In this document: positions 30,202-63,135 of the stretch, piece by piece | How the letters are laid out: the number at the start of each line of letters is the position of its first letter | How positions within the stretch are numbered: position 1 is the first letter of the stretch | Source of the DNA: an uncultured delta proteobacterium | GTDB taxonomy: Bacteria > Desulfobacterota > Binatia > UBA9968 | Direction of reading: 5' to 3' | Assembly (NCBI GenBank): GCA_963847445.1 | Contig: CAWJZV010000045.1 | Location: 168,525-232,524 of the forward strand | DNA: 64,000 bases | Position numbers and translations under genes: made by a program | The notes under the pieces: model-generated | Told to the model about the DNA's origin: nothing | Seen by the model: the letters and a program-made list of their open reading frames with translations, nothing else | The model's database searches: none

Positions 30202-31413
30202 ATGACGATTTCCTTCCGGCCGCGCTGGTATTTTTTCGTCGCGCTGGTCTCCATCACCTTCATCGGGCCGCTCTCGCTCCATCTCTTCATACCCGCCATG
30301 CCGGCGGTGAAGGAAGCCTTCGGAGTCTCGACCGGCATGGCGCAGCTCACGATGTCGCTGGCGATGTTCTCCATGGCCTTTTTCACGGTTGCCTACGGCG
30401 GCTTGTCCGACCGCTTCGGGCGCAAGCGCGTGCTCCTGGGCGGGCTGGTGTTGTTTACCTGCGGCGCCGCCAGCTGCATGGCCGCCGCCAACATGCCGAT
30501 GCTGCTGGCGGGGCGCATACTGCAGGGAGCGGGGGCGGGCTGCGGCGTCGTGCTGGCACGCGCCATCGCCCGCGATGTCTACGGCCAGGACCGCGTTGCC
30601 CAGGTGATCGCCTATCTCACCGCCGCCTACGTGCTCGGGCCGATGTTTGCGCCGCCGATCGGCGGCCACTTGACTGTGCTGTTCGGCTGGCGCGCGCTGT
30701 TCGTGTTAGCGTCGGTTGTCGGTCTGGTGGTGATCCTCGCGGTGGCTTTCGCGGTGCCGGAAACCCGCACGCGCAGCGCCGGCGCGCCGCGCGGCGTATT
30801 CGCCGGCTATAAATCGCTTTTACGTCGCCCGCGCTTCGTCGGTTTCATGCTCCAGCCGGGAATGATGTCGGCCGCCTTCTTCACCCAGGCGACCGCGGCA
30901 TCATTTCTCGCCACCGAACATCTCGGCGCCGATGCCGCCAAGATCGGCCTGTGGTTCTTCGCCTTCCCGATCGGCTTCATGGCCGGGAGTTTCATCTCGG
31001 GCCGCGTCGGAGCCAGGCGTTCAATCGAATTCATGACCATCCTGGGCGGTGTGATAGGCGTCGCCAACGGCGCGCTGCTCATTGGCTGGCTTTATTTCGG
31101 CGGCATTTCCATGGCCGCGCTCTACATTCCGGGAATGTTCGTCAGCCTCGCCCAGGGCCTGTCCATGCCCTACGCTCAAGCCGGCGCAATGGCGGTCGAC
31201 ACCGAGCTTGCCGGTTCGGCGTCGGGCGCGGTGGTGTTCTCGCAGCTTTTCTGGCCGGCCGCGCTGCAGCAGCTTACCGGGTTGCTCGCGGACGGGACCT
31301 GGGTGCCGATGGCGACGGTGCACTTTGCCGCAGTGATCGTGGCGCTACTCGCCGGCTGGCTGGCGGCGCGGGCGGAGGGTGAGCGTTTTAATTCAGATAT
31401 GATCTCTTGTTAG
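30202..31413 (+). CDS. Bcr/CflA family multidrug MFS transporter
   Basis: LSDRFGRKRVL, GRILQGAG, ARAIARD, GPMFAPPIGG, VPET. Confidence 0.92.
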   Translation: MTISFRPRWYFFVALVSITFIGPLSLHLFIPAMPAVKEAFGVSTGMAQLTMSLAMFSMAFFTVAYGGLSDRFGRKRVLLGGLVLFTCGAASCMAAANMPMLLAGRILQGAGAGCGVVLARAIARDVYGQDRVAQVIAYLTAAYVLGPMFAPPIGGHLTVLFGWRALFVLASVVGLVVILAVAFAVPETRTRSAGAPRGVFAGYKSLLRRPRFVGFMLQPGMMSAAFFTQATAASFLATEHLGADAAKIGLWFFAFPIGFMAGSFISGRVGARRSIEFMTILGGVIGVANGALLIGWLYFGGISMAALYIPGMFVSLAQGLSMPYAQAGAMAVDTELAGSASGAVVFSQLFWPAALQQLTGLLADGTWVPMATVHFAAVIVALLAGWLAARAEGERFNSDMISC

Positions 31414-31500
31414 CGTCATGCCTTCCGCCCGGCTCTGTGGGTAATCCCAAATGATTCGCTCCGAACTAAAATGATCAGACCGTGCTCCGACGTTGGCTCA
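31272..31500 (+). repeat. Anchor repeat copy 1 (native Bcr-MFS 3' end plus downstream sequence)
   Basis: CTTACCGGGTTGCTCGCGGACGGGACCTGGGTGCCGATGGCGACGGTGCACTTTGCCGCAGTG...GATCTCTTGTTAGCGTCATGCC...GGCTCTGTGGGTAATCCCAAATGATT matches copies at 58586, 61762 and 62955. Confidence 0.85.
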
Positions 31501-31793
31501 TTCGAAACTTCACAGCAGCTTCGATCAAGTCCTGTACTTCGACATTACGGATCTGTCGGCCTCATCACGTGTTCAGCGCCGGCGAGGCGCTGGCGGAGCA
31601 AGCAATTAGCCGCGAACCCGTAATTGGCAAGGCCTTACTCAAAAGCCGGTAGACTACATTAAGGTTTTTAGATAGACAAATAGCCTGCAATGAGTTGTCA
31701 CTGAATTTTAAGCATCCTAATAACGGAACAAAACCGAAGTTCGGCGATACACGGTTAGTTGTGTTTTGCGCTTGATTGTCGGAGTAACTAAGA

Positions 31794-32768
31794 ATGCTTA
31801 TTCGAAATTTTGTACAGTGGGTCGTTTTTCTAACCGTCGTTGTCGGTTTGCTGCCCGCTCAAAGCGGTGCTCAGGTCGACTTTCCAATTGGCTACGTTTC
31901 ACGTGGAGGCACCTATGCGTTCATTAGCTTGATTGAACAGCATAAACTGCTCGAGCAGGAAGGCATTCGCCCGACGTTTGTCTACATAGGAGGGCCGCAA
32001 GTCTCGCAGGCGCTGATCTCGGGCGACATCAAGATGGCCATCGTCGCCGCGGCAAGCCCAATTCGTGCTGCAGCGCACGGCGCCGATCTCAGATTCGTTG
32101 GCGGGATTACCGACAAAGAAGTAGCCTCCTTTGTCTCTGCAGCGAATATCAAAACCCCCGCGGAGTTAAAAGGAACGCGTTTAGCTATCGATCGGCTCGG
32201 TGACTATAGCGACTTCCGCGCTAGGAAAGTGCTCGAAATGTTCGGATTGCAGGCTCAAAAAGATGTCACGTTGCTGCAAATCGGCTCCCAGACGGCGCGC
32301 TTCGCTGCCCTGAGGAACAACCAGGTGCAATCGACTTTTGTTGTTCCACCGCTGACACTGGTTGCAAGGAAGGCCGGTTTGCGCGAGCTAGCCGACCTCG
32401 GTGAACTTGGCTTTCCGTCATCGTCAGGAGCTTTCGTCGTAATGCAGTCGACTGTCGAGAGAAATCCCAAAGAAATTTATGGAGTGCTTCGCGCAGTTGC
32501 CAAGGCAATACGCATTTACAAGACCGACAAGGAACAAGCGTTGGGCGCTATCGCTCGCTTCATGAGGCTAAATGATAGCGAAGCCCTGGAAGAAACCCGG
32601 CGTATGAACGTGAACGTGCTCAAAGACATTCCTTCGCCGCCGGTAGCCGGTATAAGAGTCGTACGAGACTTTCTTGCCCAGACCGACCCTGAGGTCAAAA
32701 GCATGAATCTCGAGGCTTTCATCACCACCCAGTTCTCCGATCGCCTGCAAAAAGAGGGGCTCAAGTGA
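31794..32768 (+). CDS. NMT1/SsuA-type ABC substrate-binding protein
   Basis: Signal peptide, QALISGDI, IKTPAELKG, DVTLLQIG..RFAAL. Confidence 0.85.
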   Translation: MLIRNFVQWVVFLTVVVGLLPAQSGAQVDFPIGYVSRGGTYAFISLIEQHKLLEQEGIRPTFVYIGGPQVSQALISGDIKMAIVAAASPIRAAAHGADLRFVGGITDKEVASFVSAANIKTPAELKGTRLAIDRLGDYSDFRARKVLEMFGLQAQKDVTLLQIGSQTARFAALRNNQVQSTFVVPPLTLVARKAGLRELADLGELGFPSSSGAFVVMQSTVERNPKEIYGVLRAVAKAIRIYKTDKEQALGAIARFMRLNDSEALEETRRMNVNVLKDIPSPPVAGIRVVRDFLAQTDPEVKSMNLEAFITTQFSDRLQKEGLK

Positions 32769-32957
32769 AATTTCTGCGTGGCCGAAGTTTAAGCCGGACC
32801 GCCGATGGCCAGAATTACCGCTGTCGCGAGCGGACAAGCGAACGCAACGATCGTGCTGCCGGGGCAAAATAGCCGCGCTCAATGAATGGTTGGCAGCGGA
32901 GTGTGTAACGGATACTGTCTCAGCCTTGAGATCTCAATCTTGTGAGGAGAAGTTTTT

Positions 32958-33803
32958 ATGATGGCGTACCCCTATGATAATTCCAGTTTGATCTTAGCTC
33001 TGCAAATCGATCATTCGCGCGTGGCAGGTTACTTTGCCGCACACTGGGGGAATAAGGACTTTGATCGACCAACCCCTTACGCTTCGGTGGTCTTAGCTGC
33101 GGGTGAACACGACATCGGCTGGTGGGAGTGGGAGATGTGCCCGTCGACGCTGAACGAGAAGGGGTATCCGTTAGATTATCACGACGGCAGTTTAAAATAT
33201 TTGGGCCAATTGCGCCTCGATTTTTACAAAAACTCGGTGGACCGTGTAATGACTCGAGATCGGTATGCGGCCATGTTGATGGCGATGCACGGCGTGGCGT
33301 TGATGAACGCCGGCTACGGCAAATACGCCTATCCGCCGGACCGCACTTCGGACCCGCGCGTCAAAGCCTACGTCGATCATCAAGAAGCTCTCCGCTTGAA
33401 GCTGCTCGCGGAGCTGCGCCAGTCCGAGGAGTGCAAACAGCATTGTTCCGATGAGCAGATCTGGACCAACTATGAATATATGGAGGTCTTCGACCAGCTG
33501 GCCCAGTACGTTTGCAATCGCTATCCGTTGAACAGCAAGGCGCGCAAGCTCGGCCCAAGCGATAGTTTGAATGACGTCGATATTCCGACCAAACATGGCC
33601 AGCCGGCGGTAAAAATAAAGATCGATACGATCGCCGCGAACAAGGCGATCCTGCGCCCCTATCCGTTCGACATCGACCCACTGCCAGTTTCCTTCAGCGC
33701 GCGGCTGGTGCCGAACCGAGCCTATAAAGACGGCGAAGAGTTTCTCGGCGAGTTCTACCGCGCCGAGCGGATCACGGTAACGCATACGATCGCCTCCGCT
33801 TAG
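32958..33803 (+). CDS. DUF3891-like protein (paralog 1)
   Basis: QIDHSRVAGYFAAHWGN, EHDIGWWEWE, AMH, PYPF motifs recalled from DUF3891. Confidence 0.75.
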   Translation: MMAYPYDNSSLILALQIDHSRVAGYFAAHWGNKDFDRPTPYASVVLAAGEHDIGWWEWEMCPSTLNEKGYPLDYHDGSLKYLGQLRLDFYKNSVDRVMTRDRYAAMLMAMHGVALMNAGYGKYAYPPDRTSDPRVKAYVDHQEALRLKLLAELRQSEECKQHCSDEQIWTNYEYMEVFDQLAQYVCNRYPLNSKARKLGPSDSLNDVDIPTKHGQPAVKIKIDTIAANKAILRPYPFDIDPLPVSFSARLVPNRAYKDGEEFLGEFYRAERITVTHTIASA

Positions 33804-33991
33804 ATGGCGCAGAAACGGCGCCCGCGGGCCGTTGGTGACGAATGAATTGTTCGCACCGCCTGGTGGCCGAGCGAAACCGCGGCGTCGTAATGTAAAATGC
33901 CGGACGATTGCTTGACAGTTGAAAGCGCGGATTGATACGAGCAGGAAATGCGGCGTTTTTACGCTAGCGAATAGAAATCGAAAACATACTG

Positions 33992-34876
33992 ATGAAACCG
34001 GCAAATTTCGAATATCACGATCCGGCAACCATCGCCGAAGCGCTCGATCTCATGGCGCGCTTCGGCGATCAAGCCCGGCCATTGGCTGGCGGCCAGAGCT
34101 TGGTGCCGCTGATGAATTTTCGCCTGCTCCGGCCGGCCCATGTGATCGATCTCAATGGGGTTGGCGGTCTCGATTATTTGACAGTAGTCGACAGCGCGCT
34201 GCATATTGGCGCGATCACGCGGCAACGACAGCTTGAGAAATCAGACCTAGTCGCCCAGCACTGGCCGCTTTTGCGCGAGGCCACGGCTTTCATCGGCCAT
34301 ATTCAGATACGTAACCGCGGCACCGTCGGCGGCAGCCTGGCGCACGCCTTCCCGTCGGCGGAATTGCCGGTCGTCATGGTCACCCTGGGTGCGTCACTGA
34401 TCCTGCGTAACCAAACCGGTCAACGGACCGTCGCTGCCGAAGATTTTTTTGTTTCCTTCATGACCACCGCGCTCGAGCCGGCAGAACTGCTGACCGAGAT
34501 TCAAATTCCCGCCCCGCCAGTTCAATGCGGTTGGTCTTATCAAGAGGTGAGCCGGCGTCATGGCGACTTCGCCCTGGCGGGTGCCGCAGCGGTCATCGCT
34601 TTGGACACCAACGGGAAAATTACTCATGGCAGGCTGACACTCACGGGAACTACGCCTATTCGAGCCCGAAGTGTCGAAGAAGCGCTGCTCGGCGAGAAAC
34701 CGTCCGAGGCGCTTTTCCAGGCTGCTGCTCAGCGCGCCAGCGAAACGCTCGAACAGGAATCGGACATTCACGCCAGCGCGGAATACCGTCGCAGTGCTTG
34801 CACCGTGTTGGCGCGGCGAGCCCTCGTCCAGGCAGCCGAACGATCAGCAACATTGGTAAAAGGAACAGCGCGATGA
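33992..34876 (+). CDS. Xanthine dehydrogenase family FAD subunit (CoxM-like)
   Basis: MKPANFEYH, AGGQSL, QIRNRGTVGGSLAHA, RRHGDFA, DIHASAEYR. Confidence 0.93.
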   Translation: MKPANFEYHDPATIAEALDLMARFGDQARPLAGGQSLVPLMNFRLLRPAHVIDLNGVGGLDYLTVVDSALHIGAITRQRQLEKSDLVAQHWPLLREATAFIGHIQIRNRGTVGGSLAHAFPSAELPVVMVTLGASLILRNQTGQRTVAAEDFFVSFMTTALEPAELLTEIQIPAPPVQCGWSYQEVSRRHGDFALAGAAAVIALDTNGKITHGRLTLTGTTPIRARSVEEALLGEKPSEALFQAAAQRASETLEQESDIHASAEYRRSACTVLARRALVQAAERSATLVKGTAR

Positions 34877-35358
34877 GCAGCCGGCCAGTGCGCTTGACGA
34901 TCAATGGCCGCGAATACAGCGGCGACGTGGAGCCGCGCAAACTCCTGACGGATTTCTTGCGCGACGATCTCGGTCTCACCGGCACCCATGTCGGCTGTGA
35001 GCATGGCGTGTGCGGCGCGTGCACGATCTTGTTGAATGGCGAACCGGTGCGCTCCTGTTTGCTGTTCGCGGTGCAGGCCAATGGGACGGCAATAAAGACT
35101 ATCGAAGGGCTCGCGCCCAACCCCGACGAACTCCACCCGCTGCAAGAAAAATTCTGGGAACTGCATGGTTTGCAATGCGGCTTCTGCACGCCGGGAATCC
35201 TACTTACCGCCGAAGCTCTGTTAAAAGAGATACCGAACCCGAGCGAGGAAGAAGTGCGCGAATGGATCAGCGGAAATCTTTGCCGTTGCACCGGCTATCA
35301 AAACATCGTGACGGCGATATTGGCGACAGCCAAGCTAAAGAATAGCCCACAGTCCTGA
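34873..35358 (+). CDS. 2Fe-2S subunit (CoxS-like)
   Basis: GCEHGVCGAC, QCGFCTPG, GNLCRCTGY. Confidence 0.95.
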   Translation: MSSRPVRLTINGREYSGDVEPRKLLTDFLRDDLGLTGTHVGCEHGVCGACTILLNGEPVRSCLLFAVQANGTAIKTIEGLAPNPDELHPLQEKFWELHGLQCGFCTPGILLTAEALLKEIPNPSEEEVREWISGNLCRCTGYQNIVTAILATAKLKNSPQS

Positions 35359-35454
35359 ATATGGCTGAGAGTGCCCGTAACAAAAACCCTGGCGCAGCAT
35401 GATTTAGCAACAGAAAACCCAAAACTCTCGACTCTAAACCCGAAACTAATATTT

Positions 35455-37761
35455 ATGGCGTACATCGGTTCAAGAATTAGACGCAAAGAAGATTTGCGGC
35501 TTTTGCGCGGTATCGGCAAATACGTCGGCGACATCCACCGTCCCGGCATGGTGCACGCGGCGATTCTGCGCAGCACCCACGCCCACGCGCACCTGCTGAA
35601 GATCGAAGCTAGCGCGGCGCTCAAATTACCGGGCGTCATCGGCGTGCTCACCGCCGCCGACATGCCGGGAGTGAAGACCATCCCGATGCGCACCGGTGTT
35701 ATTCCCGGACTGGAGCGTTCGCAGCAGACACCCATAGCAACGACAAAAGTGCGTTACGTCGGCGACCCGATCGCCGTGGTGGTGGCCGAGAGCCGTTACC
35801 TCGCCGAAGACGCGCTCGAATTGATCGATGTCGAATACCATCCGCTGGGCGCGGTCACCGACGCGCGCGCGAGCATGCAACCCGGCGCGCCCCAACTGCA
35901 CGACGCGACACTGAATAACATTGCCGCCAACTTTCAAGTCAACGTCGGCGAAGTCGACGCGGCATTCGCGGCATGCGATCTGATCTTCGAAGAAAACTTT
36001 TCGACGCAGCGCCACTCCGCCGTGCCGCTGGAGAATCGCGGCCTGGTCGCCGAGTGGGACGAAGGCCGCGGGTTTCTAACCATGTGGGGACCGACCAAGA
36101 TGACCCACACCAATTGGCGCATTCTCTCGGATCTGATCGGCCTGCCGCAAAGCTGCATCCACTTCATCGAGCCTGAAGTGGGCGGCGGCTTCGGCGCGCG
36201 CGGTGAGTTTTATCCGGAGGACTTTTTGATCCCTTTCGCGGCGAGGCATTTTCGCAAACCGATCTGTTGGATCGAAGATCGGTCGGAAAATCTCAAGGCG
36301 ATGAATCAATCGCGCCAGCAAAACCACCGCGTCAGGATCGGCGTTAAAAGCGACGGCACGATTCTAGCGATGGATGCCGAGATTCTCTTCGACATGGGCG
36401 GCTATACTCGCACCCACGGCGGTGTGCCGGCGATCGCAGCCTCCGCCATGCTGCGCGGTCCGTTCCGGATCAAGAACTACCGCGCCAACGTCTTCTGCGT
36501 GCTCACCAACAAAACTCCGGTCGGCACCTACCGCAGCCCGGGACGCTACGAAGCGAATTTCGTGCGCGAGCGGCTGGCCGACATGATCGCTCATCGTTTG
36601 CGGCTAGATCCGGCGGACGTACGGCGGCGCAATTTGATTCGGCACGAAGAAATGCCCTATGACCTTGGCAAACATCCTTTTCATTACATGGTTTATGATA
36701 CCGGCGATTTTCTCGGCCAGATGAATCGAGCGCTGGAGCAGTTCGGCTATGACGACTGGCAAAAGAAAATTGCCGCGGCAAAGAGCGAAGGCCGCGCCAT
36801 CGGCGTCGGCATCGGCTGCTTCGTCGAAACCAGCGGCATCGGTCCCTGGGAATACGCCCGGATCGAGATCGATAATGGCGGCAAGGTGGTTCTCTACTCC
36901 GGCTGCAACTCTGTCGGCCAGGGCATTGCAACCGCGCTGAGCCAAATCGTCGCCGACGAGCTGCAATGTTCGATCGACGACGTAACCGTGGTGCACGGCG
37001 ACACCGCCAAAGTTCCCTACGGCAACGGCAGCAACGCCAGCCGCTCTACGGTGATGGCCGGCAGCGCCGCCGTCGGCGCGTCGCGCAAAGTCAAAGACAA
37101 ACTCCTGCGCCTGGCCTCGGCCAATCTGGAAATCGACGCGGCGGATTTGATTTTACGCGACGGTAAGATCGTCGCCAAAGGCGCGCCCGAGCGCTCGTTG
37201 ACCTTCACCGAGCTCGCGCGGCTTGCGCTCCCCGGTCCGGCACTAAAGGCGGGCATCACGCCGGGCATTTCGGAAGAAGACTTTTTTGCCACCGATAAAC
37301 GCCCATTTCCCTACGGTGTCCATGTCGCCGCAGTGGAAGTCGATAAGGAGACTGGCAAGATCAAAATTCTCGACTACCTGGTCACCGAAGATGTCGGCCG
37401 CAAAATCAATCCGATGATCATCGAAGGCCAGATGGCCGGCGGCTTGGCCCAGGGCATCGGCGGCGCGATATTGGAGGAATTCGTCTACAGCGAAGACGGC
37501 CAGCCGCTGTCGACCAATTTCATGGATTATTTGCTGCCGACGGCGATGGAAATGCCCAAGGCGCAGTTCATTTCGACGGAAGACTTCCCATCGCCGCACA
37601 ATCCCTTGGGCGTCAAAGGGGCCGGGGAGGGCGGGATTACCGCTGCCGGAGCGGCTCTAGCCAACGCGGTGTCGAACGCGTTGGCTGTTGAAGTAACCAA
37701 GTTGCCCTTGAAGCCGGATTATGTTTTGGAGCTGGTGCGGAAAAGCCGAGAAGCGACTTAA
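35455..37761 (+). CDS. Xanthine dehydrogenase family molybdopterin subunit (CoxL-like, not form I CODH)
   Basis: VGGGFG, active-site loop TYRSPGR, GQG, SRS, GVKGAGEG. Confidence 0.92.
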   Translation: MAYIGSRIRRKEDLRLLRGIGKYVGDIHRPGMVHAAILRSTHAHAHLLKIEASAALKLPGVIGVLTAADMPGVKTIPMRTGVIPGLERSQQTPIATTKVRYVGDPIAVVVAESRYLAEDALELIDVEYHPLGAVTDARASMQPGAPQLHDATLNNIAANFQVNVGEVDAAFAACDLIFEENFSTQRHSAVPLENRGLVAEWDEGRGFLTMWGPTKMTHTNWRILSDLIGLPQSCIHFIEPEVGGGFGARGEFYPEDFLIPFAARHFRKPICWIEDRSENLKAMNQSRQQNHRVRIGVKSDGTILAMDAEILFDMGGYTRTHGGVPAIAASAMLRGPFRIKNYRANVFCVLTNKTPVGTYRSPGRYEANFVRERLADMIAHRLRLDPADVRRRNLIRHEEMPYDLGKHPFHYMVYDTGDFLGQMNRALEQFGYDDWQKKIAAAKSEGRAIGVGIGCFVETSGIGPWEYARIEIDNGGKVVLYSGCNSVGQGIATALSQIVADELQCSIDDVTVVHGDTAKVPYGNGSNASRSTVMAGSAAVGASRKVKDKLLRLASANLEIDAADLILRDGKIVAKGAPERSLTFTELARLALPGPALKAGITPGISEEDFFATDKRPFPYGVHVAAVEVDKETGKIKILDYLVTEDVGRKINPMIIEGQMAGGLAQGIGGAILEEFVYSEDGQPLSTNFMDYLLPTAMEMPKAQFISTEDFPSPHNPLGVKGAGEGGITAAGAALANAVSNALAVEVTKLPLKPDYVLELVRKSREAT

Positions 37762-37870
37762 CGGTGATGCTACAGATTAGTTTCGCATTGTCCGCATCTC
37801 CGAGTCCTATCCTCTCCCCCTCGACGGGGAAGCAACGAATCGCATCGGGGGCGCACAGTCCGACTGACGA

Positions 37871-37920
37871 TTTGAACGGCTTGAACGGAGCGCAGCGGTT
37901 GAACGATTTGAACGCGTTCA
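37871..37920. repeat. Short tandem TTGAAC(G) repeat
   Basis: TTTGAACGGCTTGAACGGAGCGCAGCGGTTGAACGATTTGAAC; near-identical at 53726. Confidence 0.8.
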
Positions 37921-37930
37921 GGAGTCTGAG

Positions 37931-38884: not shown

Positions 38885-39111
38885 CGCGATTGGTTCAAGG
38901 GTTCAAAAGTTCAATCTGACTGCGGATTCTGACATTGAACCTGTGAACCCTTGAATCTAATATTCCCCGCAGCTTGCTGCGGGCACAAAATTGCTGGGGT
39001 TTCCAAAGGGGGTTGAACATCCCCTTTGGTCGCGAGCGGGGTTCATACCCCGATCGCGAAATGCCCGGTTGATCATTGAACGATACGATCCAGGCGAGAG
39101 GAGATCGCTCT

Positions 39112-39955: not shown

Positions 39956-39983
39956 TTGGTTGTCCTTTCAATGCGTGCGTCGA

Positions 39984-48098: not shown

Positions 48099-48122
48099 TT
48101 GCTCCGTTGTCGATGCATCCGC

Positions 48123-52715: not shown

Positions 52716-52836
52716 GCGGCGCAAAAACCCGAGTCGTGAAATGCAAAAGCAGGGAATGCGACCGGTGGCGAAAAGGCGCAGCCGGCGAGATGAAGAAGGC
52801 GAGTTAGCAAGCTCGCATAGGTTTACGACGAACAGC

Positions 52837-53668: not shown

Positions 53669-53725
53669 CCAGGACTGGACGGCCGCGCCGATCGATCGGC
53701 ACACAAGCTCTTAATCTTCCAACGC

Positions 53726-53812
53726 GTTGAACGGCTTGAACGGAGCGAAGCGGTTGAACGTTTTGAACACGCTCAATCCCCATGGCGCGAAGCGGTTGAA
53801 CGCTTTGAACGA
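53726..53812. repeat. Short tandem TTGAAC(G) repeat
   Basis: TTGAACGGCTTGAACGGAGCGAAGCGGTTGAACGTTTTGAAC...GAAGCGGTTGAACGCTTTGAAC. Confidence 0.8.
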
Positions 53813-53844
53813 GCTCGGAGTCCTTGGACAGGCTCAGCCGGAGC

Positions 53845-55132: not shown

Positions 55133-55334
55133 GTGATTCTCCTTAGCCGAATCCGAAAAGCATTTGGCAACATAACCGAGCAGGCGTTGTGACTGCAACA
55201 AGAGCCGGTCTGGTCTACTGCCAGCGCCGCAAAAGACGGCGACCCCTAGTTTAACGGCTTGAAACGTTTGAAACGTCTGGAACGGTTGGAACAATGGATT
55301 GACCGTTAATCAAGTACCGTGGTAATTTAAGGTT

Positions 55335-55598
55335 ATGGCTTTGGCGCAATCAAAAGTGACGGCTCAGGGACAGATTTCCGTTCCGGTGGAAGTGCGACGT
55401 AAACTCGGTATCGGGCCGGGCTCGGTGCTGGAATGGGAGGAGGAAGGCGACGCCGTGGTCGTACGCAAAGCCGGCCGGTACACGTCGGAAGACATTCATC
55501 GCGCGATATTTCCGAAAGAGATACCGGCTGCGAAGAAGGTCGAAGAGTTCGATAAAGGCGTGCGGCGTTACATGAAGAAAAAGCATGCGCGCCGTTGA
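55335..55598 (+). CDS. AbrB/MazE-type antitoxin
   Basis: SKVTAQGQISVPVEVRRKLGI; overlaps PIN toxin. Confidence 0.9.
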   Translation: MALAQSKVTAQGQISVPVEVRRKLGIGPGSVLEWEEEGDAVVVRKAGRYTSEDIHRAIFPKEIPAAKKVEEFDKGVRRYMKKKHARR

Positions 55599-55965
55599 CA
55601 CCAACGTCTTGGTCCGTCTGGTCACGCGCGACGACCGGAAGCAGGTTGCTGCCGCGGAATCGTTCGTGAGTAAAGGGGCATGGGTGTCCACGCTGGTTCT
55701 CATGGAAGCGACATGGGTTCTCACCGCTGTGTACGACCTGACTCACGCGGAAATCGCGACGGCCATCGACATGCTTTTGCATCATCGAGATCTTACCATT
55801 CAAGAGTCCGATAGCGTGGCCGCAGCACTTGAGCAGTATCGCAACCGGCCGGCGTTGGGGTTCTCCGATTGTTTGATCCTCGAAACAGCTCGGAAAGCCG
55901 GCCACCTGCCGTTGGGAACCTTCGACCGAAATCTCGCCAAACTCGACGGGTCCGAAGGACTGTAG
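55585..55965 (+). CDS. vapC: VapC PIN-domain toxin
   Basis: AVDTNVLVR, GFSDCLI, TFD. Confidence 0.92.
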   Translation: MRAVDTNVLVRLVTRDDRKQVAAAESFVSKGAWVSTLVLMEATWVLTAVYDLTHAEIATAIDMLLHHRDLTIQESDSVAAALEQYRNRPALGFSDCLILETARKAGHLPLGTFDRNLAKLDGSEGL

Positions 55966-56105
55966 CCCTACCCCACGCGGCCCCTTCAGAAAAGTAGCGG
56001 GTCCTCCTTAAACTCCCCAGCGCCGATCTGTGACCATCAAGAGCCAAGGACGGGCTCGCCCCCTTTTGAGTTCTTGCAATCTTCAATCACCGGGCCGGCC
56101 ACAGT

Positions 56106-56819
56106 TTAAAGCGCGGCCGGAACTTTACGCTTCCAGAGCTCCCAAGTACGTCTGATCTGGGTGGCGTCCGGCCCTGAACGGGCGTTTACTTTCGTCGCTT
56201 CTTCCGGCGCCAAGTAGATCAACGGTCCGCTCAGCATCGCAGCCTGAAGCTGCAGCCGAGCATTGAGCTCCGTTTGGATCGCCCGATAGACGACTTGCTG
56301 CACAGTCTCTCCGACCACGACGTTGCCGTGGCCGCGCAGCAGTGCCACGGCACCTTGACCCAAGGTCTTGCCGAGGGCCTTGCCGAGCTCGCCGTTGCCG
56401 ATAAGCAAGTCCGTCATGCCGGCGACGTTACGGATATCAAAAACCGGCACCGAGGGAGAAAGGAATGCGGCGCCGTTAAACACCGGCTGCAGTGGTGTCC
56501 GGCTGATGCTGAATGGAATCGTGGTCGGGGAATGGCTGTGAATCACTGCCATAACATCGGGCCGCGCCTTGTACGCCTCGCCGTGGATAAACCGTTCGAG
56601 AAACACCTCTCGGCCTTGACGCTCGACGGCGTTGGAATCCAGGTCGTATTCCAGGACGTCGGAAGCCGTCACCAGAGCCGGCGCCAGGGAGCGCGACATC
56701 AGGTAACGCTGCGGATTATCCGGATGGCGCATGCTCACATGGCCGAGGCCGTCGAGGACGCCTTCGTTGGCGAGGATATGGCTCGCGGCTACGAGATTCC
56801 CGATGATCTGTTCGTCCAT
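56106..56819 (-). CDS. Class II aldolase/adducin family protein (copy 1)
   Basis: GHVSMR, ERFIHGE, HSHS, LLRGHG. Confidence 0.9.
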   Translation of the reverse strand: MDEQIIGNLVAASHILANEGVLDGLGHVSMRHPDNPQRYLMSRSLAPALVTASDVLEYDLDSNAVERQGREVFLERFIHGEAYKARPDVMAVIHSHSPTTIPFSISRTPLQPVFNGAAFLSPSVPVFDIRNVAGMTDLLIGNGELGKALGKTLGQGAVALLRGHGNVVVGETVQQVVYRAIQTELNARLQLQAAMLSGPLIYLAPEEATKVNARSGPDATQIRRTWELWKRKVPAAL

Positions 56820-57057
56820 GAAATCGCCTCCTTGACCGGGGTATGGTCGTTGCAAAATTGTCGGCTACCGCCAGGTGCAAGCTTTAGCAAAACTTAAGAG
56901 GATTGCGAACTCTGAGCCGCGTCTCGATGAGGTAACTATGCCTCAAGATATTGACGGTTAAGCGTGCCGTAGCCGGTGCCCATGGCCAAAGAAGCGCGGG
57001 TCATCTGTCGTCATCTCTCCTCGCTTCCTTCCTACAGCTCCTAGACTAGCCTGCCTC

Positions 57058-57240
57058 TTGGACTACGGGCTGACCTCGCTGATCACCCAGCTCGTGGTCA
57101 TTCCTGCGCCGATGGTTACCGGCTATTTGATCGGCGGGTTGGGGATCAAATTCGCGTTTGTCTTGGCGGGAATATTTCTACTAATCGCCGGTCTGGTGCT
57201 CACTCCGTTGCAGTTGTACCGGGGCACGCAGAATTCATAA
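57058..57240 (+). pseudogene. Duplicated 3' ~60 codons of the MFS gene at 44522..45746
   Basis: YGLTSLITQLVVIPAPMVTGYLIGGLGIKFAFVLAGIFLLIAGLVLTPLQLYRGTQNS nearly identical to its C-terminus. Confidence 0.92.
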
Positions 57241-57460
57241 CGGCGAATTCGGGCTGAGCACCAGCGCTTTTAGATGGAGTCGGCGCGACTGATCTCTAGT
57301 TGTTCGTATGGCCTTTTGCCAGGCTCGGTGGGTAATCCCGAATAATTTGTCCAAACTGTGACAACAGGACAGAGCTCTCCTGTTGAAATACTTGGTGTGA
57401 CCGACGAAAATTCAAAATTGCAGCATACAATGATTCACCTGCCGGCTCATACCTGACCCT
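57063..57460 (+). repeat. Anchor repeat copy 6
   Basis: MFS tail plus GGCTCGGTGGGTAATCCCGAATAATT..ACAACAG..GACCGACGAAAAT..ACCTGACCC. Confidence 0.9.
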
Positions 57461-57557
57461 GACGGTTTTAGATCTTTTCCCGCCAAGATGCATTTTCTCT
57501 ATATGATAAGATCGTGCCGTTTTACGTAAATCGTAAAATTTGGTAAAGTTTCAACAG

Positions 57558-57836
57558 ATGATCCGAAGCTTCAAGGACCGAAGAACGGAGAATTTCTTCG
57601 GTGGCGACAATGTCAGGCAGTTCTCAGGCGTCAAGAAGGCGGCGGAGCGCAAGCTGGTTATGCTGGATAGCGCGGTGAAGCTGGGCGACCTCGCCGCGAG
57701 TCCAGGAAATAGATTGGAAAAGTTATCGGGAGACAGGGCCGGACAATACAGTATCCGGATCAACGACCAATGGCGGATCTGTTTTACTTGGAAGGATGAC
57801 GGTCCGTACGACGTTGAAATCGTGGACTATCATTAA
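57558..57836 (+). CDS. higB: HigB/RelE toxin (plasmid maintenance killer type)
   Basis: MIRSFKD, PGNRLEKLSGDRAGQYSIRINDQWRICF, VEIVDYH; upstream palindrome TTTTACG..CGTAAAA. Confidence 0.93.
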   Translation: MIRSFKDRRTENFFGGDNVRQFSGVKKAAERKLVMLDSAVKLGDLAASPGNRLEKLSGDRAGQYSIRINDQWRICFTWKDDGPYDVEIVDYH

Positions 57837-57847
57837 GGAGTAACAAA

Positions 57848-58156
57848 ATGAAAAAGAATGGAATGCGACCGGTTCCGCCGGGTGAAATTCTCAACGAGGA
57901 GTTTTTGAAACCGCTGGGCCTGACGGCAAACGCGCTCGCGAAGGCGATCGGGGTGCCGCCCAACCGGATCACGGCAATTCTGAAGGATGAGAGAGGCATC
58001 ACAGGGGATACGGCGATCCGGCTGGGAACGTTTTTCAAAACATCGGCGGAATTCTGGATGAACCTGCAAATGACCTACGACCTGCGCAACGCCGAAAAGG
58101 CGCTGCCGGCCAGGGTGAGAAGGAGTATCGAAGGCAACAGGAGTGTGCTGGCGTGA
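57848..58156 (+). CDS. higA: HigA antitoxin
   Basis: PPGEILNEEFLKPLG, ITGDTAIRL, FWMNLQ. Confidence 0.93.
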   Translation: MKKNGMRPVPPGEILNEEFLKPLGLTANALAKAIGVPPNRITAILKDERGITGDTAIRLGTFFKTSAEFWMNLQMTYDLRNAEKALPARVRRSIEGNRSVLA

Positions 58157-58231
58157 TACGCAAGGTCGGCGACGGCAAAAGCCGAACCCCTAGTCGAGAA
58201 ATAGTGGCCGGCGACATAAGGAGTAAACGTC

Positions 58232-58564
58232 ATGGCAAAAGCAAAGAGGAAATCGAGCGCGGATGCAGTTGAAATTCTCCACCGTCGCTATTACGCCGGC
58301 AAGCCGCAGCGACTCGCCGCTTTGGAACAAGCGCGAGCGAACGACCACGTTGCTCGTAAGCTAACCGCACTGAGAATTTCACACGGGCTAAGCCAACGTC
58401 AACTGGCACAACTCATAGGAACCACAGCGTCGGTCATTTGTCGTCTCGAAGACGCCAATTATGAGGGCCATTCCCTGGCGATGCTTAATCGAATCGCCGC
58501 GGCCTTGAACCAACGCGTTGAGATTCGTTTTGTGCCGGCAGAACGACGCTTGCGTTCCGCATGA
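58232..58564 (+). CDS. XRE/HTH protein (orphan antitoxin-like)
   Basis: GLSQRQLAQLIGTTASVICRLEDANYEGHSL. Confidence 0.85.
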   Translation: MAKAKRKSSADAVEILHRRYYAGKPQRLAALEQARANDHVARKLTALRISHGLSQRQLAQLIGTTASVICRLEDANYEGHSLAMLNRIAAALNQRVEIRFVPAERRLRSA

Positions 58565-58585
58565 TTCCGACCGATTGGACAGGCA

Positions 58586-58830
58586 ACGGCACCTGGGTGC
58601 CGATGGCGACGGTTCAATTTGCGGCAATGACTACAGCACTTCTCGCCGTCTGGATGGCGATGCGTATTTTAAATAGAGTTGCGACCGATCTCTCGTCAGT
58701 CGTCAGGCCATCTGCCGGGGCTCGGTGGGTCATCCCGAATAATTGTCTAAACTAAAACAACAGTCGCTCTCACGTTGACCATGTGTTGAGACCGACGAAA
58801 ATCTACAATGTCAAAATACAAGACTTGACC
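58586..58830 (+). repeat. Anchor repeat copy 7 (Bcr-MFS tail plus full core plus CAAGACTTGACC)
   Basis: Encodes remnant GTWVPMATVQFAA matching the Bcr C-terminus GTWVPMATVHFAA. Confidence 0.9.
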
Positions 58831-58867
58831 ACAATGTCTGAATCTCCGTTGCGAATTGCTACGATTC

Positions 58868-59042: not shown

Positions 59043-60086
59043 GTGAATAAAGGCTCGTGTGCGATGCTGGCTGCGGTTTACGCAGTCGCCGTTTCGATTA
59101 GCTTTCCGTCGAGTTCTGAAGCCCAGAGCAAGAAAGTCACTGTTCAGCTCGCCTGGGTCATTGGCGGGCTCCACGCGGGATTTTTCGTCGCCAAAGAAAA
59201 GGGGTTCTACGCCTCCAAGGGCCTGGACGTGGCCATCAACCGCGGCTTCGGCAGCGGGGATACGGCCAAAGTGGTCGCCACCGGCGCGGCCCACTTCGGT
59301 GAGGTAAATTTGCCGACGGCGATTATCTCCCGCGGAAAGGAAATCCCATTGGGCATCCTCGGGGTTATCATCGGCAAGGCTCCGGAGAGTATCCTGGCCT
59401 TTGCAGAGAAAGGAATCCGCAAGCCCAAAGACGTGGAGGGGAAAACCTTTGCAGAGGCCTCCGGAGCGGCCATCATGGTTACCTGGCCCGCCTTCGCCAA
59501 GCTGGCGGGGATCGACATCAGCAAAGCGACCCATATCCCGGTGGAGGCCGCGGCCAAGCCCGCCGTTTTTTTCAGCGGCCAGGTCGACTGGGTCCCGGGC
59601 TTTCGGCCGGGCTTTGATGAACCGATCATACTCCGGGCCCAAAAGGAAGGAAAAAAATTATCCTTTGTACGTTGGGAAGACTTTGGCTGGAAGGTCTACG
59701 GCAACGGTCTCGTTACGCACCAGGACATGCTCAAGCGGGATCCCAAGACGGTGGCAGATTTTGTTGGCGCCACGATGGATGGCTATGCTTACGCCATCGA
59801 GCACTTTGACGAGGCCCTGGAGATCACGCTCAAGGCCAACCCGGAATTGGATCGGCAATCTGCCCGTCTCTCGCTGCTTTTCGCTCTCGACGCCATAATG
59901 ACGAAAGCTTCGAAGGAGAAAGGCTTGGGCTACATGGACGAGGATCGAATGGCCTTCCAGATAAAGCTAATGTCCGATCTGATGAAGTTCAATCCGCCCA
60001 AAAATATTTACACCAACCAATTTATACAAAAGAAACCGTTGACGGTGCCTCCAGCTCTTGCAGCGGAACTGGGCAAATTACCCTAG
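59043..60086 (+). CDS. NMT1/THI5-like ABC substrate-binding protein
   Basis: VQLAW...HAGFFVAKEKGFYASKGLDV, RGFGSG, YGNGL. Confidence 0.9.
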   Translation: MNKGSCAMLAAVYAVAVSISFPSSSEAQSKKVTVQLAWVIGGLHAGFFVAKEKGFYASKGLDVAINRGFGSGDTAKVVATGAAHFGEVNLPTAIISRGKEIPLGILGVIIGKAPESILAFAEKGIRKPKDVEGKTFAEASGAAIMVTWPAFAKLAGIDISKATHIPVEAAAKPAVFFSGQVDWVPGFRPGFDEPIILRAQKEGKKLSFVRWEDFGWKVYGNGLVTHQDMLKRDPKTVADFVGATMDGYAYAIEHFDEALEITLKANPELDRQSARLSLLFALDAIMTKASKEKGLGYMDEDRMAFQIKLMSDLMKFNPPKNIYTNQFIQKKPLTVPPALAAELGKLP

Positions 60087-60087
60087 T

Positions 60088-60861
60088 ATGCCGGAGTCGA
60101 TACGGGTCGAGCGGCTTTGCAAAATATACCGGTCGAGGGATGGAACGGAAGTCGATGCGCTTCGCCAGGTTTCCCTCACGGTGGGCCGCGGAGAATTTGT
60201 CTCCATCGTCGGCCAAAGCGGCTGCGGCAAATCCACGCTGCTTAAAATTCTCGCGGGCCTTCTTGCCAAGTCGAGTGGGTCGATCTTTATCGAGGGCCTG
60301 GACGTGGACGGGCCGCGCAGAGACATTGGCATCATGTTCCAAAAGCCGTTGCTTCTGGAATGGCGCCGGGTGTTGGACAATGTGTTATTGCCTGTCGAGA
60401 TTTATCGGCTCGATCGGAAGGAGTATGAGGAGAAAGCGCGCAGACTGCTCGGCACCGCCGGCCTGGCTGATTTCCTCAGTAAGTACCCGTTTGAGCTTTC
60501 CGGCGGCATGCAGCAACGGGTCGCTCTCTGCCGCGCGCTCGTGGCGGAGCCTTCGCTCCTCTTGATGGACGAGCCTTTCGGCGCCCTCGACACGCTCACC
60601 CGGCAGAAAATGGGCTTTGAACTCCTCCGACTCTGGGGAGAGTGGAAAAGCACGGTGTTGTTTGTCACCCACGATGTCGACGAAGCCGTGATGCTTTCCG
60701 ACAAGGTGCTGGTGATGTCTCCCCGTCCCGGAACGATCCTCGACGTATTTACGGTTGATCTTCCACGACCACGCCAGATTTTCGCCAAAGACACCGCCGA
60801 GTTCATTCACATTAGCAGCCGGATCAGGCGGTGTCTGTGGGAGGAACCCCCCGATGCCTGA
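60088..60861 (+). CDS. ABC transporter ATP-binding protein (NitT/TauT)
   Basis: GQSGCGKS, LSGGMQQR, MDEPFGALD. Confidence 0.95.
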   Translation: MPESIRVERLCKIYRSRDGTEVDALRQVSLTVGRGEFVSIVGQSGCGKSTLLKILAGLLAKSSGSIFIEGLDVDGPRRDIGIMFQKPLLLEWRRVLDNVLLPVEIYRLDRKEYEEKARRLLGTAGLADFLSKYPFELSGGMQQRVALCRALVAEPSLLLMDEPFGALDTLTRQKMGFELLRLWGEWKSTVLFVTHDVDEAVMLSDKVLVMSPRPGTILDVFTVDLPRPRQIFAKDTAEFIHISSRIRRCLWEEPPDA

Positions 60862-61624
60862 GCCGCTTCAAATCAGACGCATCCTGCGAATAACGGTCTT
60901 CTACGTCGCCGCGCTGTTCCTATGGGAAGGGCTGATCCGGCTGCTCCATGTGCCGGAATGGCTTGTGCCCGCGCCCTTGCAAATCATCGACGTAATCGCC
61001 GACAAAAATTCAATCATGATCTTCCATACGCTGGTGACGCTCACGGAGAGCGTGCTGGGCTTTGTTCTTGCTCTTGGTCTCGGCGTTATTTGCGCAATCG
61101 GGATCGTCCACTTTCCACTTCTGCGTGACACCCTCTACCCGACGCTGATCATGTTCAACTCTTTCCCGAAAATCGCGATCGCCCCGCTCTTTGTCGTGTG
61201 GATCGGCGTGGGTATCGAATCGAAGATCGCCAATGCCTTTCTCACCGCACTGTTTCCCATCGTGCTCAACACAATCCTGGGGCTCACCGCCATGGATCCG
61301 GAGCTGCTGGAACTTGTTCGGTCCATGTCGAGGAGCCGTTCGGTTTTGTTCTGGAAAATTCGTCTTCCTCATTCCCTCCCGTACCTCTTTGCCGGATGCA
61401 AGATCGCCATCTCTTTAGCCGTCATTGGAGCGATCGTCGGAGAGTTCATCTCCGGAAGATCCGGGCTGGGCTACTTGGTCCTCTCGGCCAACAACTACTT
61501 CAATACCCCAATGGCCTTCACGGCGCTTCTCTACCTGGTTCTGATGTCACTGGGTCTTTACGGCATGGTGATTTTGGCCGAGAAACTCACCCTTCCCTGG
61601 CACCGTCGGGAAACCTCGGGGTGA
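60854..61624 (+). CDS. ABC transporter permease (NitT/TauT)
   Basis: PKIAIAPLF, GAIVGEF, GLGY. Confidence 0.93.
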   Translation: MPEPLQIRRILRITVFYVAALFLWEGLIRLLHVPEWLVPAPLQIIDVIADKNSIMIFHTLVTLTESVLGFVLALGLGVICAIGIVHFPLLRDTLYPTLIMFNSFPKIAIAPLFVVWIGVGIESKIANAFLTALFPIVLNTILGLTAMDPELLELVRSMSRSRSVLFWKIRLPHSLPYLFAGCKIAISLAVIGAIVGEFISGRSGLGYLVLSANNYFNTPMAFTALLYLVLMSLGLYGMVILAEKLTLPWHRRETSG

Positions 61625-61761: not shown

Positions 61762-61948
61762 GCTCACCGGACTGCTCGCGGACGGTAGTTGGGTGCCGAC
61801 GGCGACGGTTCACTTTGCGGCAATGACTACAGCACTTCTCGCCGTCTGGATGGCGGTGCGTATTTTAAATAGAGTTGCGACCGATCTCTCGTCAGTCGTC
61901 AGGCCTTCTGCCGGGCTCAGTGAGTAAACCCGATTAATTCGCGCGAAC
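61762..61948 (+). repeat. Anchor repeat copy 8
   Basis: 61790-61915 nearly identical to 58594-58718. Confidence 0.92.
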
Positions 61949-61969
61949 TGTCACCGGGCCGGCCACAGT

Positions 61970-62683
61970 TTAAAGCGCGGCCGGAACTTTCCGCTTCCAG
62001 AGCTCCCAAGTACGTCTGATCTGGGTCGCGTCCGGCCCTGAACGGGCGTTTACTTTCGTCGCTTCTTCCGGCGCCAAGTAGATCAACGGTCCGCTCAGCA
62101 TCGCAGCCTGAAGCTGCAGCCGAGCATTGAGCTCCGTTTGGATCGCCCGATAGACGACTTGCTGCACAGTCTCTCCGACCACGACGTTGCCGTGGCCGCG
62201 CAGCAGTGCCACGGCACCTTGACCCAAGGTCTTGCCGAGGGCCTTGCCGAGCTCGCCGTTGCCGATAAGCAAGTCCGTCATGCCGGCGACGTTACGGATA
62301 TCAAAAACCGGCACCGAGGGAGAAAGGAATGCGGCGCCGTTAAACACCGGCTGCAGTGGTGTCCGGCTGATGCTGAATGGAATCGTGGTCGGGGAATGGC
62401 TGTGAATCACTGCCATAACATCGGGCCGCGCCTTGTACGCCTCGCCGTGGATAAACCGCTCGAGAAACACCTCCCGGCCTTGACCCTCGACGGCGTTGGA
62501 ATCGAGGTCGTATTCCAGGACGTCGGAAGCCGTCACCAGAGCCGGCGCGAGGGAGCGCGACATCAGGTAACGCTGCGGATTATCCGGATGGCGCATGCTC
62601 ACATGGCCGAGGCCGTCGAGGACGCCTTCGTTGGCGAGGATATGGCTCGCGGCTACGAGATTCCCGATGATCTGTTCGTCCAT
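61970..62683 (-). CDS. Class II aldolase/adducin family protein (copy 2)
   Basis: Near-identical to 56106..56819 (one amino-acid change, R to G). Confidence 0.9.
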   Translation of the reverse strand: MDEQIIGNLVAASHILANEGVLDGLGHVSMRHPDNPQRYLMSRSLAPALVTASDVLEYDLDSNAVEGQGREVFLERFIHGEAYKARPDVMAVIHSHSPTTIPFSISRTPLQPVFNGAAFLSPSVPVFDIRNVAGMTDLLIGNGELGKALGKTLGQGAVALLRGHGNVVVGETVQQVVYRAIQTELNARLQLQAAMLSGPLIYLAPEEATKVNARSGPDATQIRRTWELWKRKVPAAL

Positions 62684-62954
62684 GAAATCGTCTCCTTGAC
62701 CGGGGTATGGTCGTTGCAAAATTGTCGGCTACCGTCCCCACTTTCCTCTCCTGAAACGAAAACAGGGGCGCGTTACCGAAAGATCACGGTGCCAGCGACT
62801 TGAAGAAAAAGAATAGAGAAATTTATTTCACGGGAACGCCTGTGCCTACTTGACCTGCCGGCTAATGGGCGACCCCTTTTGGGTTCTCCTTTTGGATTCT
62901 TCATGTGGCGCTTCCATTTGCGGGATGATGTCAAGAAACGTCGTCGAAGTGAAG

Positions 62955-63135
62955 CGCCGGTTGGATAGCGGTGCGGGCTGAGCGTTAGAGCGTTTAAATG
63001 GATAAATAAAGTCAACGCGACCGATCTATCGTACGCAGCAGACCTTCTGACGGGCTCGGCGGGTGATCCCGAATAATTAGTCAAAGCGAAACAACAGAAC
63101 TGCGCTCTCACGTCGAAAAAGTAATGAGACCGACT
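62955..63135 (+). repeat. Anchor repeat copy 9
   Basis: GCCGGTTGGATAGCGGTGCGGGCTGAGCG..CGCGACCGATCT..GGGCTCGGCGGGTGATCCCGAATAATT..AAACAACAG..GCTCTCACGT..TGAGACCGAC. Confidence 0.85.

Follow-up and report, generated by a model that had tools for sequence, protein, structure and literature searches.

Hotspots of gene gain that carry no mobile elements are common but poorly explained. In the sections of Oliveira et al. (PMC5635113) on which we draw, host homologous recombination is proposed as their driver, by double crossover in two flanking core genes. Here we describe such a locus in a 64,000-nucleotide window (the whole stretch analyzed: nucleotides 168525 to 232524 of contig C45, CAWJZV010000045.1, with the contig end as its right end) from an uncultured delta proteobacterium (GCA_963847445.1; 48 contigs, 7.19 Mb, 6.9% contamination). 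To the right of an intact major facilitator superfamily (MFS) transporter gene, MFS-A, accessory modules form an array that is bordered by co-oriented copies of a short, mainly noncoding unit. The locus shares with the hotspots in those sections of PMC5635113 a conserved flank, fast accessory-gene turnover among relatives, and no integrase or transposase. Unlike them, it also has copies of a flank-derived unit inside the hotspot, and its "flank" gene has itself been exchanged across genera. A single family of soil bacteria shares the hotspot. The feature is genuine, extends across that family, and is not accounted for by a known mobile element.

In sedentary chromosomal integrons and integrase-less attC clusters, co-oriented repeats of about 100 to 200 nt separate the cassettes, many of which are toxin-antitoxin pairs, and the arrays vary from one relative to another. 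The original prediction for this window, made from its letters alone, likened it to an integron. The layout supports that likeness: co-oriented repeats stand between cassettes that vary among relatives, and the cargo includes toxin-antitoxin pairs. Every defining molecular feature that could be tested speaks otherwise, however. An integron with attC sites is ruled out by the lack of any hairpin symmetry and of IntI, the modules are multigenic and use both strands instead of being single open reading frame (ORF) cassettes in one orientation, and break points are scattered within the repeat. XerCD-dependent elements at dif and pdif modules comprise modules, often toxin-antitoxin pairs, that are moved without a recombinase of their own; unlike them, our unit contains no dif-like site.

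Two further comparisons concern the repeat itself. The tycheposon islands of Prochlorococcus, as the excerpted account has it (10.1101/2020.12.28.424599), have an intact tRNA at the edge and scattered partial copies, with newer elements pushing older ones inward. Our locus likewise has an intact gene at its edge and partial 3' copies throughout a hypervariable island. Measured against that excerpt, it departs in that a protein gene and some 180 nt of DNA beyond it form the target, in that the arrays searched hold no integrase or integrase fragment, and in that the repeat ends vary, with no fixed crossover border. Reused, "putative mobile" promoters are highly similar promoter-like sequences found before unrelated genes (PMC3575422, in the part cited). 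Unlike the promoters in that part of the source, the copies described here all lie in one locus and carry coding fragments of the upstream gene, and their promoter is predicted from sequence. A literature search found no description of this architecture or of this lineage's islands, which does not in itself show absence from print.

What sets the present hotspot apart is an internal marker, a conserved unit at module borders that is common to genera of an uncultured soil lineage. The process thereby becomes traceable, by counting insertions, finding donors, and seeking junctions in long reads.

RESULTS

The unit is confined to one locus and one orientation

Self-BLAST of the window yielded 20 repeat pairs at an E value of ≤1e-4. 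Fourteen of these connect the nine repeat places listed in the original prediction, and all 14 are in +/+ orientation. The remaining six are an inverted rRNA match, two internal ABC-F pairs, the DUF3891 paralogues, a TTGAAC-rich element, and an aldolase duplicate. A profile of the noncoding core (nhmmer) found six window copies, with E values from 1e-19 to 2e-47. All nine places hold at least part of the repeat, and every copy lies on the plus strand (Table 1). The prediction that some copies are only partial was borne out as well, three of the listed places holding parts only. Its coordinates were good to about ±50 nt, except for the left edge of the third place (given as 43490-43600), where only 43555-43600 matches.

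Could the unit be an ordinary dispersed repeat? A BLAST search of the whole genome with the core (word size 7) gave six matches, and all six were on the window's contig and on one strand. With the TTGAAC-rich element of the same window there were 64 hits over 21 contigs, so the method does find dispersed repeats where they are present. Hence, a repetitive extragenic palindrome or miniature inverted-repeat transposable element is ruled out, and the repeat is restricted to this locus, as had been proposed. Since the contig ends at position 64000, 860 nt past the last copy, the array may extend further.

The shared unit is noncoding, with a sharp right end and variable left ends

The shared element is mainly a noncoding unit of about 170 to 185 nt, composed of a head (consensus positions 1 to ~110) and a tail (the remainder). 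Its 172-position consensus, which opens with the MFS-A stop codon, is TAGCGCTTTTAAATAGAG...GCGACCGATCTCTCGTTACTCGTCAGGCC...GGGCTCGGTGGGTAATCCCGAATAATTCG...AAACAACAGGACCGCGCTCTCACGTTGAC.ACGTGGTGAGACCGACGAAAATCCGAAATGTCAAAATACAAGA; about 12 more conserved bases follow (CTTGACCCCGA). The native place of the unit is directly 3' of the MFS-A gene. Full-length MFS-A is followed directly by the unit in six genomes (G000, which is that of the window, G004, G015, G018, G006, and G044; here and below, G denotes genomes, C contigs, and L loci or metagenome stretches), and the last ~12 codons of the gene extend into the unit. Cross-genus homology of MFS-A begins at window position 30201; its Met is residue 52 of the ORF at 30049-31413.

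The original prediction derived the repeat from the 3' ends of MFS genes. This did not hold for its constant part, which is noncoding and follows two unrelated MFS genes. Fragments of the MFS-A type stand at 31272, 41410, 58566, and 61762, with a short one at ~62955, and those of the second gene, MFS-B, stand at 45569, 52874, and 57063. MFS-B is frameshifted in the window and intact (407 amino acids) in G003 and G004. As read from the alignment, the unit behind MFS-B opens with ~20 nt resembling the final MFS-A codons, which suggests that all units descend from the region downstream of MFS-A.

The right end of the unit is sharp, information falling from 0.5 to 0.8 to about 0.1 bit per column across 23 tails; left ends vary. 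Among partial units, the start falls at model positions 29 to 40, 57 to 60, 82, and 95 to 128 and the end at 60 to 67, 99 to 102, 112 to 128, and 143 to 156. The left ends of MFS-A fragments fall at residues ~388 to 394, 403 to 411, and 415 to 422, a spread of about 35 codons. These scattered break points and variable left ends argue against one regenerated att site, as in the earlier proposal that each insertion regenerates or duplicates the anchor.

The tail looks like an outward-facing sigma70 promoter (TTGACC-16-GAAAAT, then TGTCAAAAT) and, judged by its bases, would act as one. TTGACC-16-GAAAAT occurs in all three complete window tails that were scanned, giving -35 and -10 hexamers at a spacing within 16 to 18 nt that are conserved across copies. 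The -35-like GTTG columns are invariant in alignments of 16 and of 20 copies, tail-only copies usually start just upstream of the -35, and the tail's sharp end lies about where transcription would begin. The head holds a perfect CGAAT-N-ATTCG palindrome, which the alignment places among the best conserved columns. No conserved fold was found: the consensus of 20 copies gave -0.29 kcal/mol with three pairs and that of six copies -7.7 kcal/mol, both with no compensatory changes, and none of 10 DNA folds of tails beat shuffles at a z score of <-1. Rfam families in the window were rRNA and tRNA only, with no match to the unit. Short motifs of the tail end (TTGACCCC, GACCCCGAC, and others) showed no clear enrichment in the array, occurring 0 to 3 times versus 0.2 to 0.7 expected.

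Modules turn over to the right of a conserved flank

The left flank (window 15.6 to 31.3 kb) is collinear in G003 and G004, at 78 to 100% identity by piece and 87 to 96% in the long pieces. To the right of MFS-A these genomes share modules with the window at 88 to 98% identity, in other orders and combinations. Module 1, which includes the molybdenum (Mo) hydroxylase genes, is kept in G004 (90 to 94% identical) and absent at the corresponding place in G003; module 2 is 94.5% identical to G018:C28. G004 has the order MFS-B, unit, BrnTA versus the window's tail, BrnTA, MFS-B, unit. The junction of the copy 3 tail with BrnTA is 90.6% identical in G004, where a complete unit precedes BrnTA. Window positions 52781-52851, in the area of copy 5, occur three times in G004. 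Immediately after MFS-A and its unit, seven genomes of the genus have six different sequences, and addition of three metagenome contigs brings this to eight in ten contexts. Assembled contigs from four public runs of four studies add further populations, in which 45861 is joined to 58218 and the unit to BrnA.

One difference gives an insertion and its empty site. Module 4 is wholly absent from G003, in which the MFS-B 3' end joins the MgtC flank directly, without window positions 45766-52873. In the window this extra DNA is bordered by a 73-nt direct repeat (45693-45765 and 52874-52945). The original expectation that module content and order would differ among relatives was supported, and the pair of insertion and empty site also speaks for the original reading.

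The original view of the copies as insertions of different ages at one anchor was not supported. Copies cluster across genomes by module context (w57 with G003, w45 with G004), not by genome or by age order in the array, which points to old paralogues that travel with modules and are not being homogenized. Identity between G003 and G000 inside the MFS-A 3' end drops from 95% to 57% from ~31290, with one clear break at ~31290-31340, a putative recombination break within the 3' end of the gene.

Modules range from 0.7 to 10 kb, with up to ~10 genes on both strands. They had been described as self-contained. They are indeed variable and bordered by copies, but many hold broken genes: PrpD is in two ORFs (49476-50889), the thiamine diphosphate (ThDP) enzyme lacks its N-terminal domain (51207-52715), the amidase is in two ORFs (53845-55294), and a zinc alcohol dehydrogenase (Zn-ADH) of module 1 (39984-40535, minus strand) lacks its N-terminal half. 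Junctions between modules away from units resemble plain deletions. The cut point of copy 8 is the exact start of the 99%-identical aldolase duplicate. No common motif was found at toxin-antitoxin module junctions in G083, G003, G004, and the window, and no unit remnant was found at a second recurrent break near window position 27055.

Modules and MFS-A have moved between genera

With G083, G077, and G115, from three other genera, the flank genes show 70 to 74% identity, whereas modules are 88 to 96% identical across genera. In G083, VapBC is 89.7%, BrnTA 88.2%, and part of HigA 88.5% identical to the window. MFS-A shows the same excess, at 88 to 90% in G077 and G115. Because these identities exceed the flank level, we assign the modules, and MFS-A with them, to a pool that is exchanged horizontally, and the original notion of a fixed anchor fails: MFS-A and its unit are part of what is exchanged. 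In G083 (seven contigs), MFS-A fragments accompany three to four co-oriented units, and no full MFS-A was found within 60 kb of them.

Of the 31 genomes of the genus, the window's own included, 21 have the unit, as do 35 of the 89 others in the family, across nine genera; each carrier has one to six clustered copies. It was found in none of the 33 genomes of two sister families (0/5 and 0/28). Two unpublished genomes are counted in these tallies: G005, without a match, and G082, with one. On 12 of the 13 genome contigs with at least two listed matches, all copies are on one strand. A metagenome scan gave 35 contigs with the unit; all 14 with two or more hits were co-oriented. In three of these, the hits are two pieces of a single copy with an internal deletion, and several others represent one locus sampled more than once. 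An exact-pattern scan of species genomes returned 11 stretches, all from metagenome bins, one labeled Candidatus Binatia and the others bearing other depositor labels. No record of a plasmid collection contained the unit.

In 20 public runs (10 studies of soil, sediment, permafrost, and biofilter), 26 to 40% of the words sampled from window 54000-63900 were present, and no run had half. Close relatives with other module sets appear to be widespread.

No recombinase was found beside the arrays

The original prediction had seen neither attC nor an integrase, and folds and PF00589 searches likewise found neither. Of the seven PF00589 matches in G000, none is on the window's contig, and none was found on the array contigs of G003, G004, and G014 or on G018:C28. 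Across the genus, the closest PF00589 match to a unit is 43 kb away, among 150 of 219 matches listed. The whole G004 genome has four PF00589 matches and no PF00239 match; PF00239 was also absent from G000, G003, and G018, and in G044 its matches are 215 kb away. In G000, G003, G004, G044, and G018, no PF00665, PF01609, or PF01797 match lies within 12 kb of a unit, the nearest Y1_Tnp being 12.8 kb away, in G018. A home-made integrase profile gave no hits in 690 kb of array DNA. Overall, no integrase-bearing element or integrase remnant was found in the arrays of the genomes and contigs searched, within a reach limited by fragmented genomes and the home-made profile. Between or beside units, Pfam assigned only metabolic, transport, and defense families in G004 (20 ORFs) and G083 (10 ORFs).

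Several candidates were set aside. Matches of G000 Y1-type proteins beside units (phmmer) mostly dissolved on a Pfam scan: of seven such ORFs, one is a real Y1_Tnp (G083, 9 kb from the unit), one is borderline, one is of the Mrr/NACHT type, and four have no family. IS110-family genes (PF01548) lie 5 to 6 kb to the right of the last unit in G004 (C9:1486921-1487415) and G018 (C28:25016-25441), on the same strand as the units. They share no mutual DNA similarity, and we take them for ordinary insertion sequences, not array machinery. One insertion sequence lies in a metagenome locus (L084:7755-10300, also in L091) and encodes a 505-amino-acid rve/Mu-transposase-C protein and a 258-amino-acid neighbor; it resembles IS21. 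Three ~20-nt repeats (GGGTGGGTCC.TTC) mark its end, which directly adjoins an MFS-A fragment on the fragment's left side. Apart from these IS110 genes and this one insertion sequence, the locus has a conserved flank, variable content, and no mobility genes.

A scan with a 28-nt dif motif found no dif-like site in the unit; such sites lie only on contigs C1 and C37 of the genome, and Xer/dif was rejected. The two sites (C1:18114 and C37:7586; GATAAGATATATTATGT[AC]AAC) are near-identical with similar flanks and could reflect duplication of the terminus region, contamination, or integration of an element at dif.

DISCUSSION

We give roughly even chances to the following reading: the region beyond MFS-A, on its right, is a hotspot of horizontal transfer that carries no mobility genes, and a promoter-like unit derived from the anchor travels with the modules and serves as portable homology. 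Copies of the unit with a varying MFS-A coding end would have become linked to toxin-antitoxin, defense, metabolic, or transport modules and would have been inherited and exchanged jointly with them. Because no other sequence is common to unrelated modules and to genera, the unit could provide the homology that they otherwise lack. The homologous recombination system of the host would then act on pairs of units, either in unequal crossovers or as circles are excised and reenter, and modules would be inserted, deleted, and reordered; frequent illegitimate deletions would account for the truncated units and the broken genes. Promoter activity, the part played by host recombination, and the direction of events are what we infer from these patterns.

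Several points weigh against this reading. Paralogous units within a genome are only 70 to 85% identical; RecA would use such pairs poorly, and they should seldom recombine. The sharp right end adjoins at least 12 unrelated downstream sequences, a pattern that homology or random breakage alone could hardly produce. Both facts better fit precise joining, which is why a cassette system with an enzyme in trans stays under consideration. High cross-genus identity shows transfer and not its mechanism. The next gene is co-oriented after 18 of 27 complete tails versus 6 of 17 truncated ones (Fisher's P = 0.06, with copies that are not independent), which weakly supports a promoter. The searches covered seven recombinase and transposase profiles (PF00589, PF00239, PF00665, PF01797, PF01609, PF01548, and PF22483, the last by chance), local searches of array DNA with the home-made profile and phmmer have limited reach, and most relatives are fragmented metagenome bins.

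Might the locus be a true cassette system? Its site-specific enzyme would act in trans or be of a kind not yet recognized and would use the unit as its equivalent of attI or attC, with joining at the sharp tail end; circles of modules plus unit would be excised and would reenter behind MFS-A or behind any other unit. The sharpness of the right end in 23 tails beside those unrelated sequences would be expected, as would the strict co-orientation of copies and the concentration of variability (six neighbors in seven genomes) at the spot behind MFS-A and its unit. The unit is ~80 to 90% identical across genera versus 70 to 74% for flank genes, without RNA structure, which would suit a protein-binding site; toxin-antitoxin pairs abound in the cargo, as they do in chromosomal integrons, and modules have been exchanged between genera. 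We nevertheless consider such a system rather unlikely. Among the matches listed (for PF00589 across the genus, 150 of 219), none to a tyrosine or serine recombinase is closer than 40 kb to a unit, and G004, with five to six units, has just the four PF00589 and no PF00239 matches genome-wide. The limits of partial units fall at many positions, left ends vary, off-unit junctions resemble plain deletions, and there is neither inverted-repeat symmetry nor a hairpin. The specific form in which the unit is the recombination site of a system without an enzyme in cis, joined precisely at the tail end (...AAGACTTGACCCCGA) by a host-encoded or unrecognized recombinase, we regard as unlikely; toxin-antitoxin, defense, and metabolic modules of a pool common to the family would in that case be captured behind MFS-A and carried between genera, each with its promoter provided by the unit. 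Should the sharp tail end be a point of precise joining, the integron paradigm would not cover this cassette system. If there is no precise joining, the locus would be a clear natural example of portable homology plus a portable promoter organizing an accessory-gene and defense island.

The promoter-like hexamers in all three complete window tails, the invariant GTTG, the conserved palindrome of the head, and the tendency of tail-only copies to begin just upstream of the -35 would also suit a purely regulatory unit, that is, a promoter with operator sites of one regulon that came to stand before several operons and whose position at borders is a by-product with no role in rearrangement. Near-identical promoters reused before unrelated genes are on record (PMC3575422, in the part cited). 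Yet 9 of the 27 complete tails face a convergent gene, the MFS-A coding pieces carried along serve no regulatory purpose, the copies flank insertions and deletions, and all of them sit in one plastic locus instead of genome-wide; this makes an exclusively regulatory role distinctly unlikely. We think it very unlikely that the copies are scars of integrative elements that targeted the MFS-A 3' end, supplied a surrogate 3' end, and left att-like partial copies as their integrases decayed. The intact target gene at the island's edge, with pieces of its 3' end strewn through the interior, recalls the partial tRNAs of Prochlorococcus, and the identity break in G003 falls within the MFS-A 3' end. 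In the excerpted Prochlorococcus account (10.1101/2020.12.28.424599), however, integrase-bearing elements and integrase fragments are present, and none was found in the arrays searched here; moreover, the repeat runs ~180 nt beyond the gene and also follows a second gene, and its left ends are not fixed. Finally, a chimeric metagenome contig could have strung together strain variants of one MFS locus. The bin has 48 contigs and 6.9% contamination, the contig, and the window with it, stops 860 nt beyond the last copy, and the array contains a 784-nt duplicate that is 99% identical. Such an artifact is scarcely credible given equivalent co-oriented arrays on 12 other contigs of 11 other genomes, including 7- and 10-contig assemblies, and on 14 independent metagenome contigs; the copies, moreover, are 70 to 92% identical, unlike near-identical strain variants.

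FEATURES OF THE WINDOW AND RELATED LOCI

Table 1. Positions of the unit copies, transporter genes, and modules in the window
Feature	Position	Strand	Description
MFS-A transporter gene, intact	30202..31413	+	Pfam MFS_1, E 6.5e-44 on ORF 30049-31413
Copy 1	31272..31502	+	MFS-A 3' end + unit head; break near model position 127, tail absent
Core profile match	31381-31498	+	nhmmer E 1e-24
Module 1	31503..41409		NMT1-like binding protein, DUF3891 (two), Mo-hydroxylase FAD/2Fe-2S/Mo cofactor subunits, amidohydrolase, Zn-ADH, GFA; Pfam
Inverted tail-like fragment, weak	31523..31578	-	nhmmer E 8e-4
Copy 2	41410..41530	+	MFS-A 3' fragment fused to final ~25 nt of tail (read from the sequence), internal deletion; BLAST E 4.5e-6
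Module 2	41581..43414	-	Alpha/beta-hydrolase + 128-amino-acid ORF without family; Pfam
Copy 3	43555..43600	+	Tail alone, immediately upstream of BrnT; E 0.005
BrnT/BrnA toxin-antitoxin pair	43699..44256	+	Pfam BrnT_toxin, CopG_antitoxin
MFS-B transporter gene, unrelated to MFS-A	44435..45746	+	Pfam in two frames; tblastn, ORF tables
Copy 4	45569..45938	+	MFS-B 3' end + complete unit (unit from ~45751)
Core profile match	45769-45930	+	nhmmer E 2e-47
Promoter-like site	45882-45909	+	TTGACC-16-GAAAAT, copy 4
Module 4	45939..52819		TctA/TctB fusion (minus), 279-amino-acid ORF without family, PrpD in two ORFs, truncated ThDP enzyme; Pfam
Copy 5	52820..52958	+	Degraded tail ~52820-52860 (by eye) + 73-nt MFS-B 3' fragment 52874-52945 (E 4e-12)
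Module 5	53198..56855		MgtC, split amidase (minus), MazE-like antitoxin + PIN toxin (VapBC-like), class II aldolase (minus); Pfam
Copy 6	57063..57440	+	MFS-B 3' fragment + complete unit
Core profile match	57263-57431	+	nhmmer E 3e-45
Promoter-like site	57383-57411	+	Copy 6
Module 6	57540..58564	+	HigB-like toxin, HTH antitoxin, XRE-type HTH protein; Pfam
Copy 7	58566..58831	+	MFS-A 3' fragment + complete unit
Core profile match	58666-58823	+	nhmmer E 6e-42
Promoter-like site	58775-58802	+	Copy 7
Module 7	59043..61624	+	ABC uptake operon: NMT1-type binding protein, ATPase, permease; Pfam
Copy 8	61762..61953	+	MFS-A 3' fragment + head only; cut at model position ~99
Core profile match	61862-61952	+	nhmmer E 1e-19
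Class II aldolase duplicate	61951..62734	-	784 nt, 99% identical to 56087-56870
Copy 9	62955..63139	+	Short MFS-A-like piece + unit cut at model position ~147
Core profile match	63002-63138	+	nhmmer E 2e-36
HigB_toxin/HTH pair	63259..63904	+	Pfam

Some further features were observed in the arrays and around them. Within module 1, the DUF3891 paralogues (32958-33803 and 39076-39933, ~60% DNA identity) bracket the Mo-hydroxylase and amidohydrolase genes. The TTGAAC-rich element lies at window 37867-37920 and 53722-53816 (TTGAACGGCTTGAACGG...GGTTGAACG.TTTGAAC), and many metagenome contigs break at 53727-53768, in the area of its second occurrence. In G004, a 498-amino-acid TIR-domain protein is encoded inside the array (L014:9880-11376), and a cluster for an IrrE/M78 peptidase, Multiubiquitin, and ThiF lies immediately to the right of the last unit (L015:11182-15308); both the protein and the cluster are likely antiphage defense cargo. 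A complete rRNA operon (16S, two tRNAs, 23S, and 5S) lies at window 9512-14862, 16 kb to the left of the array.

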